Position numbers and translations under genes: made by a program. The notes under the pieces are model-generated. The model saw only the letters and a program-made list of their open reading frames with translations, made no database searches and was not told where the DNA came from. From Oscillospiraceae bacterium (GTDB taxonomy: Bacteria > Bacillota > Clostridia > Oscillospirales > Acutalibacteraceae), in contig SVQH01000007.1 in NCBI GenBank assembly GCA_015065425.1, positions 39,038-103,037 on the forward strand: a stretch of DNA of 64,000 bases, read 5' to 3'. The number at the start of each line of letters is the position of its first letter. Within the stretch, counting starts at the first letter, position 1. Shown piece by piece: positions 11,883 through 15,273 of the stretch.

Positions 11883-11911
11883 TTGACAGGAAAGAAAATT
11901 GATGCTAAAAT
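11883..11911 (+). promoter_or_regulatory. sigma-A promoter driving the T-box leader
   Basis: TTGACA, 17-nt spacer, TAAAAT. Confidence 0.65.
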
Positions 11912-11923
11912 ACGGACAATAAA

Positions 11924-12176
11924 GGCAATGACGAAGAGGGATGTTTCCGTGAAGCCTTCAGAGAGACAGCGGTAGGTGAGAGCTGTCGGTGAATGGAAAT
12001 TGTCTGTAGCTTCCGAGCCGGAGAGAAGAAAGCGTTCTGCCGTAGAACTCTCCCGTAAGGCTTGCGTAAAAGCATAAGGCTTAATAGAGCCTGAGTGGCA
12101 CTGTAAGTGCAATTTGAGTGGTACCGCGGGTAAATTTTACTCGTCTCAAAGAAATTTTTCTTTGGGGCGTTTTTTT
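11924..12176 (+). promoter_or_regulatory. T-box riboswitch leader (Stem I, Stem II, Stem III, T-box/antiterminator, terminator)
   Basis: Stem I runs 11924-12019, with a K-turn-like AAUGAC/CGA, an AG bulge cagagaga and a distal loop gguaggugaga. Stem II is ggagag...ctctcc. The conserved T-box sequence aatttgagtggtaccgcgg sits at 12111-12129. The terminator is 12142-12169 plus T7, and its 5' arm overlaps the antiterminator 3' arm. Confidence 0.85.
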
Positions 12177-12197
12177 GTTGCCCCGACAGGAGGAATT

Positions 12198-14495
12198 ATG
12201 AGTAACAGTATTACAGGTCTTGATTTCAAAATCCGTGAAATGGCGGCAAGAATCAAGGAGCTCAGAGAAGTTATCGGTTATACTTATGTGGAAATGGCTC
12301 AGAAAACAGGTGTTTCCGTTGACGAGTACATGAGATGCGAAGAGGGAAAAAATGATCTTAACTTTGCATTTATATACCGTTGTGCACTTGCCTTTAATGT
12401 CGATGTTACCGATATCATACAGGGTTCATCTCCCACACTTGCGTCTTATACGGTCACAAGAAAGGGCGAGGGTCAGAGAATAGAACAGGCTCACGGCATG
12501 ACATATTACAATCTTGCCGCTTCCTTCAAGAACAGAATCGCAGAACCCCTTTATGTGCATTCGGTAAAAGGCGAGGGCGATGAGAATAAGGATATTGAGC
12601 TTACTACCCATGACGGTCAGGAATGTGACATTGTTATAAAAGGTACGCTTAAAGTACAGGTCGGCGAACATGTGGAAATTCTCCATGAGGGAGACAGTAT
12701 ATATTATGACTCTTCTTCTCCTCACGGTATGGCTGCCGTCGGTGATGAGGACTGCCTTTTCTATGCCATTGTTCTTAATCCTTCAGGTGAACCTATTCCC
12801 GAATTTTCTGCACAGAAGGCAGAAACTGCCGTATCTCCCAAGCGTATCGGAGAAGAAAAGACAGACAGAGTTTACCGCAAATGGGTATCTGTTCAGAAGA
12901 ATGAAAACGGTACTCCCGTCAAGGTGGGTTTCCTGAATGAAGAAGACTTCAATTTTGCCTTTGATATAGTGGATGAAATTGCAGCCAAAAAGCCCGATAA
13001 ACTTGCCATGCTCCATATTTCAGAGGACCACACCGAAAGAAGATTTACTTTCTCTGATATCAGCCGTGCATCAAATCAGTGTGCTAATTACTTCAGGTCT
13101 CTGGGCATCAAAAAGGGCGACAGAGTTCTTCTTGTTCTCAAACGACATTATCAGTTCTGGTTTGCAATACTGGGACTTCACAAAATAGGTGCTGTTGCCA
13201 TTCCTGCTACAAATCAGCTGCTTGAACATGATTTCTCTTACCGTTTCAATGCTGCGGGAATCAGTGCAATACTCTGTACTGCTGACGGAAATACTGCAGA
13301 TGAAGCAGAAAAAGCGGCTGCAGATGCTCCGACTCTTACAACAAAAATAATTGTCAACGGTGAAAAAGAAGGTTGGCGTAGTTTTGATGCCGAATATGAG
13401 CTTTTCAGCGAAAAGTTTGAAAGAAAGGAAGACTCTCCCTGCGGAAGTGACCTTATGCTCATGTTCTTTACCTCGGGTACTACAGGTTATCCCAAAATTG
13501 CGGCACATAATTTCAAATATGCTCTCGGCCATTTTGTAACTGCAAAATACTGGCATTCGGTAGACCCTGACGGACTTCATTTTACAATTTCCGACACGGG
13601 CTGGGCTAAAGCTCTCTGGGGTAAGCTTTACGGTCAGTGGATGAGTGAAGCAGCAACCTTTGTTTATGACTTTGACCGTTTCAATGCCGCGGATATTCTT
13701 CCCATGTTCTCTAAATATCGCATCACTACATTCTGTGCTCCTCCCACTATGTACAGAATGCTTATAAAAGAGGACCTTACAAAATACGACCTGTCTTCCG
13801 TTGAGCATGCTACCATTGCAGGTGAAGCACTCAACCCCGAAGTGTTCAAACAGCTTGAAAAACTCACGGGACTTCGTATTATGGAGGGCTTCGGTCAGTC
13901 TGAAAGTACTCTTATGATCGGTAACCTTGTAGGAGCCAACCATAAAATCGGCTCAATGGGTAAACCCGTTCCCATATATGATATTGATATTGTTGATACT
14001 GAAGGAAATTCATGCGGTGTCGGTGTTCCCGGTGAGATTATCGTAAGAACAGGGGATAAAAAGCCCTGCGGTCTGTTTACGGGATATTATCTCGATGATG
14101 AAAAGACAAATGAAGTATGGCATGACGGTATGTATCATACCGGTGACATGGCTTGGAAGGACGAGGACGGCTTCTATTGGTATGTGGGCAGAATTGATGA
14201 TGTTATCAAGTCTTCCGGCTATCGTATCGGTCCCTTTGAAATTGAAAATGTCATTATGGAACTGCCTTATGTTCTCGAATGCGGTGTTACTGCTGCTCCC
14301 GATGAGGTGAGAGGTCAGGTGGTAAAAGCTGTCATTGTTCTTACCAAGGGAACCGCGGCTTCCGAGGAACTGAAAAAGGATATTCAGAATTATGTCAAGA
14401 AGCATACTGCTCCCTACAAATATCCGAGAATAGTTGAATTCAGGGAATCTCTTCCCAAGACCACAAGCGGAAAAATAATCCGAAATAAGCTTTGA
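12198..14495 (+). CDS. fusion protein: XRE-type HTH + cupin domain + AMP-forming (medium-chain type) acyl-CoA synthetase
   Basis: Start at the ATG after AGGAGG (MSNSITGLDF...). The N-terminus is an HTH (YVEMAQKTGVSVDEY), followed by a cupin (HDGQECDIVIKGTL...HGM). AMP-binding motifs follow: FFTSGTTGYPK, YHTGD, SSGYRIGPFEIE and PKTTSGKI. Confidence 0.8.
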   Translation: MSNSITGLDFKIREMAARIKELREVIGYTYVEMAQKTGVSVDEYMRCEEGKNDLNFAFIYRCALAFNVDVTDIIQGSSPTLASYTVTRKGEGQRIEQAHGMTYYNLAASFKNRIAEPLYVHSVKGEGDENKDIELTTHDGQECDIVIKGTLKVQVGEHVEILHEGDSIYYDSSSPHGMAAVGDEDCLFYAIVLNPSGEPIPEFSAQKAETAVSPKRIGEEKTDRVYRKWVSVQKNENGTPVKVGFLNEEDFNFAFDIVDEIAAKKPDKLAMLHISEDHTERRFTFSDISRASNQCANYFRSLGIKKGDRVLLVLKRHYQFWFAILGLHKIGAVAIPATNQLLEHDFSYRFNAAGISAILCTADGNTADEAEKAAADAPTLTTKIIVNGEKEGWRSFDAEYELFSEKFERKEDSPCGSDLMLMFFTSGTTGYPKIAAHNFKYALGHFVTAKYWHSVDPDGLHFTISDTGWAKALWGKLYGQWMSEAATFVYDFDRFNAADILPMFSKYRITTFCAPPTMYRMLIKEDLTKYDLSSVEHATIAGEALNPEVFKQLEKLTGLRIMEGFGQSESTLMIGNLVGANHKIGSMGKPVPIYDIDIVDTEGNSCGVGVPGEIIVRTGDKKPCGLFTGYYLDDEKTNEVWHDGMYHTGDMAWKDEDGFYWYVGRIDDVIKSSGYRIGPFEIENVIMELPYVLECGVTAAPDEVRGQVVKAVIVLTKGTAASEELKKDIQNYVKKHTAPYKYPRIVEFRESLPKTTSGKIIRNKL

Positions 14496-14496
14496 T

Positions 14497-15273
14497 ATGA
14501 AAACAGCATTGATACAGATGAAAATAAAAGAGGGGGACACGGAATATAATTTCAGCCGTGCCCGTACTCTTCTTGAAAAAGCGGCTCAAAACCGCCCCGA
14601 TGTTATAATGCTTCCCGAAACATGGAATACAGGTTTTTTCCCGAAGGATGATATTGATGATGCTGCAGATGAAAATGCGGTAAAGACAAAAGCACTTCTC
14701 AGCAGAATCAGCCGTGAATACAAGGTAAATATTGTCGGCGGAAGTGTTACGGAGAAAAAAGACGGCAAATTTTTCAATACCTGCTATGTCTTTGATGATA
14801 AAGGGAATAATATCGCTTCTTACAGTAAAGCACATCTGTTTTCCCCCATGGAAGAAAACAGGTATTATTCTGCAGGTGACGGAATTTGTCTTTTTACCGT
14901 AAACGGTATAAAAGCGGCTGTAATGATATGTTATGATCTGCGTTTTCCCGAATTTGCAAGAAAAGCGGCACTTTCGGGAGCTGAAGTGATTTTTGTTCCC
15001 GCTCAGTGGCCGAAGGAAAGAATATCTCAGATGAAAATCCTTCTCAGAGCGAGAGCAGTGGAGAATCAGATGTTTGCTTTATTGTGCAATTCCTGCGGTG
15101 AGGCTTACAATACACTTTACGGCGGCAGTTCTCTTGTCTGTGACCCTCTCGGTAACACCGATTCTGCGGGAGACGGCGAAGAAATTCTTTTTGTTTCCTG
15201 TGACACGGATGTTATCAAAGATATAAGAAAAAGCATAAATGTTTTCTCTGACAGAAGGGAAGATATATATTGA
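14497..15273 (+). CDS. carbon-nitrogen hydrolase (nitrilase/omega-amidase superfamily) protein
   Basis: The E-K-C triad contexts are LPETWN, YSKAHLF and MICYDLRFPE. The start is 1 nt after the upstream stop, so the gene is probably co-transcribed. Confidence 0.8.
   Translation: MKTALIQMKIKEGDTEYNFSRARTLLEKAAQNRPDVIMLPETWNTGFFPKDDIDDAADENAVKTKALLSRISREYKVNIVGGSVTEKKDGKFFNTCYVFDDKGNNIASYSKAHLFSPMEENRYYSAGDGICLFTVNGIKAAVMICYDLRFPEFARKAALSGAEVIFVPAQWPKERISQMKILLRARAVENQMFALLCNSCGEAYNTLYGGSSLVCDPLGNTDSAGDGEEILFVSCDTDVIKDIRKSINVFSDRREDIY

Follow-up and report, generated by a model that had tools for sequence, protein, structure and literature searches.

The T-box operon and its leader RNA

The window analysed here, a stretch of 64,000 nucleotides from an Oscillospiraceae bacterium (family Acutalibacteraceae; GenBank assembly GCA_015065425.1, contig SVQH01000007.1, positions 39,038 to 103,037), carries a T-box leader followed by two genes. 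The first encodes an acyl-CoA synthetase (hereafter the ligase) fused to an N-terminal helical-cupin module and the second a C-N hydrolase. A first-pass annotation of this DNA had described a consensus promoter, a complete T-box leader with mutually exclusive antiterminator and terminator, and two tightly coupled open reading frames (ORFs) immediately downstream; all of these are recovered by the present analysis. The features of the unit, numbered from the first nucleotide of the window, are the following (aa, amino acids; HTH, helix-turn-helix).

11883..11911, + strand: sigma-70-type promoter TTGACA-17 nt-TG-TAAAAT, 11/12 consensus positions, with an extended -10 TG
11919..12151, + strand: T-box leader (Stem I, Stem II, IIA/B region, Stem III, antiterminator), covering the full Rfam RF00230 model (1-219)
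11923..12020, + strand: Stem I with K-turn, specifier loop, AG bulge and distal loop, read in the sequence and backed by covariation in aligned leaders
11960-11965, + strand: AG bulge AGAGAG, read in the sequence
11971-11981, + strand: distal loop GGUAGGUGAGA, read in the sequence
12006..12008, + strand: assigned specifier codon GUA (Val); orthologous leaders have GTA (65), GTC (3) or GTG (1)
12009 and 12010-12013, + strand: conserved purine G12009, then the closing helix CUUC; the base after the codon is G in 60 leaders and A in 9
12113..12150, + strand: antiterminator with the 7-nt bulge UGGUACC at 12119-12125, from the fold of 12104-12152
12119-12122, + strand: UGGU of the antiterminator bulge, to pair with the tRNA 3′ end ACCA, implying an A73 discriminator
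12142..12176, + strand: intrinsic terminator (12-bp stem at 12142-12169, 4-nt loop, U7), from a terminator scan and the minimum-free-energy fold
12188-12193, + strand: AGGAGG, ahead of the ATG at 12198
12198..14495, + strand: fusion protein of 765 aa (helical HTH-like domain, cupin, linker, acyl-CoA synthetase), from Pfam/NCBIfam, a PDB relative and AlphaFold2 (AF2)/Foldseek
aa ~8-76 of the fusion protein: acidic HTH-like helical domain (HTH_3/HTH_31 under the Pfam cut-off)
aa ~90-195 of the fusion protein: metal-type cupin with H138/E142/H176 (Cupin_2)
aa ~246-765 of the fusion protein: predicted short branched-chain acyl-CoA synthetase domain (AMP-binding, AMP-binding_C)
13605-13607, + strand: Val-type residue Ala470, directly after the invariant DTGW, from the paralogue alignment
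14497..15273, + strand: C-N hydrolase of the nitrilase superfamily, Nit2/MtnU-like, 258 aa (Pfam CN_hydrolase, 163.6 bits)
~15278..15316, + strand: terminator hairpin and U-run closing the T-box-ligase-amidase unit (fold -18.5 kcal/mol, z = -4.0)

The RF00230 covariance model scores 94.2 bits on 11919-12151 (gathering score 93, E = 2.4e-19). The T-box sequence AAUUUGAGUGGUACCGCGG folds into a canonical antiterminator, the 3′ strand of which (12142-12150) is at the same time the 5′ arm of the terminator, and the two structures are mutually exclusive. The start codon of the hydrolase lies 1 nt past the ligase stop, and none of 200 shuffled sequences folds as well as the hairpin that closes the unit. 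The window leader is a class I transcriptional T-box of ordinary type and conventional logic; it shares its class I architecture, UGGN bulge and competing terminator with the T-boxes of amino-acid biosynthesis operons (RF00230), such as the Leu-responsive leader of Bacillus subtilis ilv-leu.

Since few of the relatives' leaders pass the stringent 93-bit cut-off, these were anchored on motifs, aligned and examined for covariation. When 106 related leaders were aligned and folded with RNAalifold, compensatory changes appeared at 11/14 predicted pairs of Stem I. In the helix that closes the specifier loop (columns 11-14/100-103), no pair is broken in any leader, and 3/4 pairs undergo a compensatory AU<->GC exchange, in 17, 2 and 4 sequences respectively.

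Specifier codon and tRNA identity

Relatives of the fusion protein occur in at least 592 species genomes, nearly all of them from uncultured gut or rumen Oscillospiraceae, Acutalibacteraceae and other Clostridia. Synteny and leader counts were drawn from the best 80 loci, 73 of which are uncut by a contig end. In about 75 of these 80, the T-box core AGTGGTACCGCG is found ~100 nt 5′ of the counterpart of the window gene (Val type, or ligase B). Most loci possess a second T-box ~2.6 kb further 5′, before a paralogous fusion protein that is 65% identical (Ile type, or ligase A).

To call the specifiers, the K-turn and the helix closing the specifier loop served as anchors in each leader, and the three bases before the last base of the loop were read; about 115 orthologous leaders were compared in all. 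All 69 callable Val-type leaders have GUN and a purine directly ahead of the closing helix, and four of the six that the script could not call read GTA-G by eye. Because the third position varies (GUA, GUC, GUG) while the bases farther 5′ vary freely (TTT in 38 leaders, GTT in 6, TCT in 5, GCT in 5, TAT in 4, others in the rest), the invariant triplet belongs to the valine codon family, and the covariation of the closing helix backs this register. On this comparison, the specifier of the window T-box is the valine codon GUA. By contrast with GUN in the Val type, the Ile-type leaders read AUC in 44/45 cases by script and also by eye in the 45th, and the 12 further leaders of stand-alone ligase A copies, reached via a distant representative, all read AUC.

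The first-pass annotation had deduced an A73 discriminator from UGGU and had hesitated between GUA and the Leu codon CUG (12004-12006). The former argument stands: UGGU is present in 74/75 Val-type and 45/45 Ile-type leaders (119/120 overall), as fits an A73 discriminator, and tRNA-Val and tRNA-Ile both have A73. As to the codon, GUA is retained and CUG is discarded. Sensing of another tRNA, Leu through CUG or Cys through UGU (12005-12007), has next to no likelihood: both triplets do occur in the window loop, but neither is conserved across orthologous leaders, in which the bases preceding GUN vary while GUA/GUC/GUG differ only at the third position, as expected of one codon family, and UGGU is moreover incompatible with the U73 of tRNA-Cys. 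No tRNA gene was found within the 64-kb window.

Two atypical leaders were observed among the relatives. At locus L066 (3700-3995), a GC-rich and apparently degenerate leader precedes ligase B, with CGGG replacing UGGU. At L038 (3006-3228), a third T-box with UGGU lies directly 3′ of the Val-type ligase; its loop, UCUGAAU, does not allow the codon to be called (GAA or CUG), and the contig ends before the regulated gene.

The ligase domain and its predicted substrate

The ligase domain matches Pfam AMP-binding (215 bits, cut-off 29.9) and AMP-binding_C (74.5 bits, cut-off 24.5). Its closest solved structure is PDB 3etc, with which it aligns end to end (621 bits, E = 1.5e-185). This structure is that of MacsMa, a Methanosarcina acetivorans enzyme of the medium-chain acyl-CoA synthetase type, which prefers 2-methylbutyrate as substrate (PMC10455477). 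Among NCBIfam models, the best match is that of MbcS, the methylbutyryl-CoA synthetase of Staphylococcus aureus, which is selective for 2-methylbutyrate and isobutyrate and performs poorly with isovalerate (PMC10026030); judging by its score, the window ligase is a relative of MbcS and no orthologue. The occurrence of Ile and Val types only, without a Leu type, fits this relationship because MbcS handles isovalerate poorly.

The window protein and these two characterised enzymes, which both prefer alpha-branched C4/C5 acids, are alike in their ANL domain and in a conserved pocket Trp (the invariant W452, which corresponds to Trp259, the alternate pocket Trp of MacsMa). The window protein differs from both in carrying an extra N-terminal module of ~245 aa (helical domain and cupin), in being under T-box control and in its MbcS score below the cut-off, and it differs from MacsMa in having Ala instead of Gly after DTGW.

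This last position also separates the paralogues. A comparison of 49 Ile-type with 80 Val-type proteins gave 11 positions that differ between the groups while being conserved to 90% or more inside each; only one of them, residue 470, is in the ligase domain. It is Gly in 49/49 Ile-type proteins, as in MacsMa, and Ala in 79/80 Val-type ones. Over all fetched genes, residue 470 and the T-box specifier are concordant in 112/113; the single exception, L051:3995-6283, is a Val-type (GTA) gene with Gly at 470. If residue 470 lines the acyl pocket, Ala470 would make this pocket one methyl smaller, as expected for an acid that is one carbon shorter. Taken together, the window ligase is most likely an ANL-family short branched-chain acyl-CoA synthetase, with isobutyrate as its predicted substrate.

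Gene neighbourhood in related genomes

The typical gene order in related genomes is Ile-T-box/ligase A, Val-T-box/ligase B, a P-loop protein, a delta ferredoxin and the alpha, beta and gamma subunits of a 2-oxoacid:ferredoxin oxidoreductase (OFOR). Ligase B is followed by this OFOR in 60/80 loci (60/73 of those uncut by a contig end). The delta subunit is a 68-aa protein with 2x[4Fe-4S], and the alpha subunit passes the NCBIfam VorB model (547 bits, cut-off 399), which designates a 2-oxoisovalerate:ferredoxin oxidoreductase (VOR). Several loci also encode a class IV branched-chain aminotransferase (BCAT; NF009897, 447 bits, cut-off 307). The neighbourhood in the relatives therefore encodes activation, reductive carboxylation and transamination. 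The P-loop protein, a CbiA/ParA/Mrp-like NTPase of 215-225 aa, stands between ligase B and the VOR delta gene in ~60 loci (e.g. L003:6295-6957) and may serve VOR as a carrier of Fe-S clusters.

The full-length fused architecture forms only three clusters at 50% identity in a representative library. A third fused paralogue, for Leu/isovalerate or an aromatic acid, was found in none of these three clusters; the T-boxes of the distant type all read AUC, and that of L038 is the uncallable one described above. Outside Firmicutes, the fusion was encountered in Methanotrichaceae (L120), Lentisphaeria and Paludibacteraceae (L104, L105, L109), in no case with a T-box. In the Methanotrichaceae archaeon (L120:4980-9924), the fusion gene is followed by OFOR alpha, beta and gamma.

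Other arrangements were also noticed. The Val-type gene stands alone in ~13 other species, in two of which the start of a NUDIX hydrolase gene overlaps the stop of the ligase (L047:6289-6789, L057:6289-6759). Ligases A and B are adjacent (30-60 nt) with no T-box between them in L026, L033, L035, L041, L075 and L098. A third, unfused AMP-ligase (~25% identity) lies 5′ in L035, L041 and L098, and also in L141, L145 and L147.

A probable salvage route from isobutyrate to valine

The conversion of branched-chain volatile fatty acids into branched-chain amino acids (BCAAs) is a classical route of rumen and gut bacteria, known biochemically since the 1960s. As a T-box switches its operon on when the cognate amino acid runs short, and as VOR and BCAT belong to the operon in the relatives, this operon should run toward the amino acid. 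The window unit is thus quite probably a two-gene operon for valine salvage from isobutyrate, under a valine-specific transcription-attenuating T-box.

The following model of its functioning can be proposed. Uncharged tRNA-Val (anticodon UAC, A73) would make two contacts, pairing its anticodon with the GUA of the specifier loop in Stem I and its free ACCA end with the UGGU of the antiterminator bulge. The 12142-12176 terminator would then give way to the antiterminator and RNA polymerase would read through, a tRNA dependence that is presumed from the mechanism of the T-box family. The ligase would convert isobutyrate, its presumed substrate, ATP and CoA into isobutyryl-CoA. A VorB-type enzyme would reductively carboxylate the latter to 2-oxoisovalerate, from which a branched-chain aminotransferase would form valine. 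In most related genomes, the paralogous ligase under the Ile (AUC) T-box would initiate the same route from 2-methylbutyrate to isoleucine. Finally, the C-N hydrolase would hydrolyse the 2-oxoglutaramate (or 2-oxosuccinamate) left when glutamine (or asparagine) serves as amino donor; acting as an omega-amidase, it would make the last step irreversible and pull the uphill carboxylation forward.

The suggestion, made speculatively in the first-pass annotation, that a T-box sensing a BCAA tRNA controls a branched short-chain acyl-CoA synthetase feeding reductive carboxylation is strongly supported by the VorB-type OFOR in 60/80 loci, the BCAT in several, the Ile-T-box paralogue and the relatives that activate 2-methylbutyrate and isobutyrate. 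Its contrast between this target and biosynthesis genes is misleading: the ligase gene is itself a biosynthetic (salvage) gene, and for this reason the logic of the T-box is conventional. It is the same as that of the ilv-leu T-box, where the supply of the cognate amino acid is induced when its tRNA is uncharged. The target differs from those of known T-boxes, as it is neither an aminoacyl-tRNA synthetase, nor an ilv/leu enzyme, nor a transporter, but an acyl-CoA synthetase that starts a salvage by reductive carboxylation. The relatives further differ from ilv-leu in having two tandem paralogues with Ile and Val T-boxes.

Several points weigh against this reading. No VOR, BCAT or ilv gene was detected in the 64-kb window, either by tblastn with the relatives' VOR genes or in the Pfam analysis of the 20 largest other ORFs. 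The window and its closest relatives (L001, L081, L083; together the window lineage) have the ligase-amidase pair alone beside a lysine operon. As VOR and BCAT are not in the window, the fate of isobutyryl-CoA in this organism is extrapolated from the relatives, and the substrate assignment for the fused family is likewise drawn from the unfused enzymes MacsMa and MbcS. The MbcS score, 440.6 bits, is under the equivalog cut-off of 850. Residue 470 is presumed to line the acyl pocket from its supposed correspondence with Acs Val310/Ile312. As for the leader, its RF00230 score exceeds the gathering threshold by just 1.2 bits, and only 3 T-boxes in 14 sampled loci, including a Val-type and an Ile-type relative, pass that threshold.

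The location of the window pair has a bearing on the best-surviving alternative, in which the ligase, like MbcS, would provide the isobutyryl-CoA that primes iso-branched fatty acids at times when valine, normally the source of the primer, is scarce. Branched-chain fatty acid priming is the established role of MbcS (PMC10026030, PMC11167679), which is the best NCBIfam match, and the window ligase is not beside VOR or BCAT. In most relatives, however, the T-box operon runs on into VOR and often BCAT, so that induction by starvation makes sense only anabolically; nor would lipid priming lead one to expect the pairing of an omega-amidase-like enzyme with an aminotransferase. Lipid priming as the main role is improbable on these grounds, and the two roles are compatible with each other. 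The VOR and BCAT partners of the valine salvage operon must be encoded at another place in the genome, unless isobutyryl-CoA is also put to a further use, e.g. lipid priming.

The N-terminal helical-cupin module

The N-terminal module is the part most diverged between the paralogues. It holds 10 of the 11 positions that discriminate Val-type from Ile-type proteins (all 10 in aa 60-195), and identity between paralogues is 0.42 in the HTH part and 0.52 in the cupin, versus 0.69 and 0.88 in two parts of the ligase domain. Inside each orthologue group the module is well conserved, identity in the Val-type group amounting to 0.67 for the HTH part and 0.72 for the cupin. The cupin residues H138, E142, H176, G140, D144, G165, D166, P175 and G177 are invariant in 129/129 proteins and Q141 is present in 128/129.

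An AF2 model of aa 1-240 (predicted local distance difference test score 65.5 overall, ~80-90 in the two domain cores) was used for the fold class only. Foldseek searches with this model returned matches with E = 7e-14 to 1e-9 over the two-domain helical-plus-cupin fold. The top one is 1y9q, a regulator of the HTH_3 family; the enzymes HppE, HEPD and MPnS, whose helical domain is not DNA-binding, match about equally well. The window module shares this two-domain fold with them and has an invariant His-Glu-His in its cupin. It differs from all four in being fused to an acyl-CoA synthetase and in its acidic helical domain.

The first-pass annotation had labelled the helical domain as HTH, and the protein could accordingly be regarded mainly as a transcription factor, i.e. 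an XRE-HTH/cupin repressor with a BirA-like acyl-adenylate co-repressor that would autoregulate its promoter or control the vor genes. Pfam HTH_3, HTH_31 and HTH_19 do match, and pass their cut-off in the paralogue, the top Foldseek match is a regulator, and an inverted repeat of 22 nt (11821-11876; 86% complementarity around a 12-nt spacer) lies just 5′ of the -35, in the divergent region common with an S4-domain gene (11546-11785, minus strand). In the window protein itself, however, the HTH scores are below the Pfam cut-offs (HTH_3 21.2 versus 23; HTH_31 22.8 versus 27). The helical domain is strongly acidic in 129/129 members, with a mean net charge over aa 8-76 of -5.6 in the Val type and -6.4 in the Ile type, and the would-be recognition helix, (S/V)xEEYxxCExG, is rich in Asp/Glu. 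The inverted repeat was rejected as an operator, since it is lost even in relatives that are 92-94% identical and the domain is acidic. Because the helical domain is acidic in every member and HppE-like enzymes match the model equally well, the N-terminal "HTH" is probably not a DNA-binding repressor. The DNA-binding role is thus not borne out, and a transcription factor as the main identity of the protein appears very improbable.

The module is probably a paralogue-specific ligand- or metal-binding regulatory module, e.g. an end-product sensor; an O2-dependent oxygenase role for the cupin is unlikely in these anaerobes. A further step would be to suppose that each ligase is subject to two orthogonal amino-acid-specific controls, the T-box responding to tRNA charging and the N-terminal module binding the end product (Val/Ile or the 2-oxo acid) and switching the ligase off. 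This proposal is speculative and somewhat unlikely as it stands. If true, the T-box, the end-product brake and the omega-amidase ratchet discussed below would together amount to a full push-pull-brake system by which BCAAs are made from fermentation acids.

The C-N hydrolase as a possible omega-amidase

The hydrolase retains the catalytic Glu, Lys and Cys and the second Glu, the motifs LPETWN, KxHLF, ICYD and ENQ being conserved in 10 copies. Its closest solved structures are 3p8k, 1f89 and 2w1v, and among the relatives that are both solved and characterised, yeast Nit3 and mouse Nit2 come closest. A single-sequence search for relatives gave 12 loci only, and a profile search was therefore used. 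In nine Clostridia loci, the hydrolase gene is directly 5′ of BCAT, in two cluster arrangements: ligase B, hydrolase, BCAT, P-loop protein, VOR in the first; VOR, hydrolase, BCAT in the second. Relatives from Bacilli (38-46% identity) lie beside a PRK08068 transaminase gene and mtnK/mtnA, a methionine-salvage context. In methionine salvage, omega-amidases of the nitrilase family remove 2-ketoglutaramate and thereby render glutamine-dependent transamination irreversible, a device known as the 'ketoglutaramate ratchet' (PMC6302742).

By analogy, the hydrolase may tentatively be viewed as an omega-amidase 'ratchet' for the final transamination, although this falls somewhat short of an even chance. 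Where the first-pass annotation had left the role of the amidase unexplained, the conserved pairing with an aminotransferase now points to this activity. The hydrolase belongs to the same superfamily as the known omega-amidases (Nit2, Nit3 and the C-N hydrolase of Bacillus Met salvage), has an intact Glu-Lys-Cys triad and is paired with a transaminase in relatives. It differs from the Met-salvage enzymes in that the partner is a class IV BCAT and the product Val/Ile instead of Met. Counter-evidence comes from several sides. In the window, no transaminase adjoins the hydrolase, and ~85% of ligase loci lack the hydrolase altogether. Class IV BCATs normally take glutamate, not glutamine, as donor, which weakens the omega-amidase assignment. 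In addition, the hydrolase scores below the equivalog cut-offs of both the YafV-type amidohydrolase (PRK10438; 104.6 bits, cut-off 249) and deaminated-glutathione amidase (126.3 bits, cut-off 355).

The coupling of the two genes could also evoke a glutamine-dependent amidotransferase like NAD synthetase, in which adenylation by the ligase and ammonia released by the hydrolase, acting as a nitrilase-type glutaminase, would together yield an amide and not a CoA thioester. Besides the translational coupling, the hydrolase weakly matches the NAD+ synthase glutaminase domain (84 bits). This candidate was rejected and deserves very little credence, as the hydrolase is absent from most ligase loci (~85%) and tracks the aminotransferase instead, also when it lies after VOR and distant from the ligase, while the ligase keeps its CoA-ligase C-terminal domain and scores 621 bits against a bona fide acyl-CoA synthetase.

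In the window lineage, the hydrolase gene follows the ligase gene (copies at L001:6301-7080, L081:7001-7780 and L083:6970-7749). The hydrolases of this lineage are only 59-63% identical to each other, with intact catalytic residues, while the ligases are 92-94% and the DapA proteins 85-92% identical. This divergence reflects either fast evolution or allele replacement.

Genomic surroundings of the operon

Downstream of the amidase gene lies a separate lysine unit (15328-19653). It has a promoter of its own (15328-15356), a lysine riboswitch (RF00168, 81 bits, at 15360-15534) and terminator-like hairpins (15556-15628), followed by dapA, dapB, the meso-diaminopimelate dehydrogenase gene (ddh) and lysA. 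L001, L081 and L083 show this arrangement after the amidase as well. The listed start of the dapA ORF (15535, TTG) overlaps the lysine riboswitch and is certainly too far upstream. Upstream of the T-box, the window has htrA and the S4-domain gene, while its 92%-identical relative L001 has a 5S rRNA gene (2306-2422) ~1.3 kb 5′ of the T-box. The rest of the window is of a housekeeping nature (21848-26087, 34845-40730, 59158-60558), with recJ, relA/spoT, genes of an Opp-type peptide ABC transporter and a gene for a class II aminoacyl-tRNA synthetase, before which Rfam detects no T-box.

Relation to known systems and significance

Switch, enzyme superfamily and pathway are each known; what the operon brings is their combination, which assigns genes, specificity and regulation to the pathway. 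To our knowledge, neither the activating enzyme of the VOR pathway nor its regulation had previously been assigned to genes. When compared with this pathway as known from rumen and gut anaerobes and methanogens, the clusters of the relatives, hosted by gut and rumen Clostridia, encode every step including the delta ferredoxin; here each ligase is, in addition, marked with its amino acid by the T-box specifier. No description of a T-box associated with an acyl-CoA synthetase, VOR or reductive carboxylation was found in the literature searched, which left out key reviews, and an in-silico T-box survey does not mention acyl-CoA synthetases as a target class.

The growth of many rumen and gut anaerobes depends on branched-chain volatile fatty acids, a requirement that is exploited in feed supplementation. 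The genes and the control of the first step from these acids to amino acids lacked a clear assignment, for which the family described here, found in at least 592 species genomes, is a candidate. The T-box specifier tells which amino acid, and hence which acid, each paralogue would serve, and the Gly/Ala residue tracks this label. Cross-feeding of isobutyrate and 2-methylbutyrate would thereby become predictable from metagenomes, and the Val and Ile ligases would offer a natural enzyme pair for the engineering of specificity. These data also extend the T-box regulon to a new enzyme class, suggest that the omega-amidase 'ratchet' may operate beyond methionine salvage, and bring to light an uncharacterised sensor-like cupin module fused to a CoA ligase.

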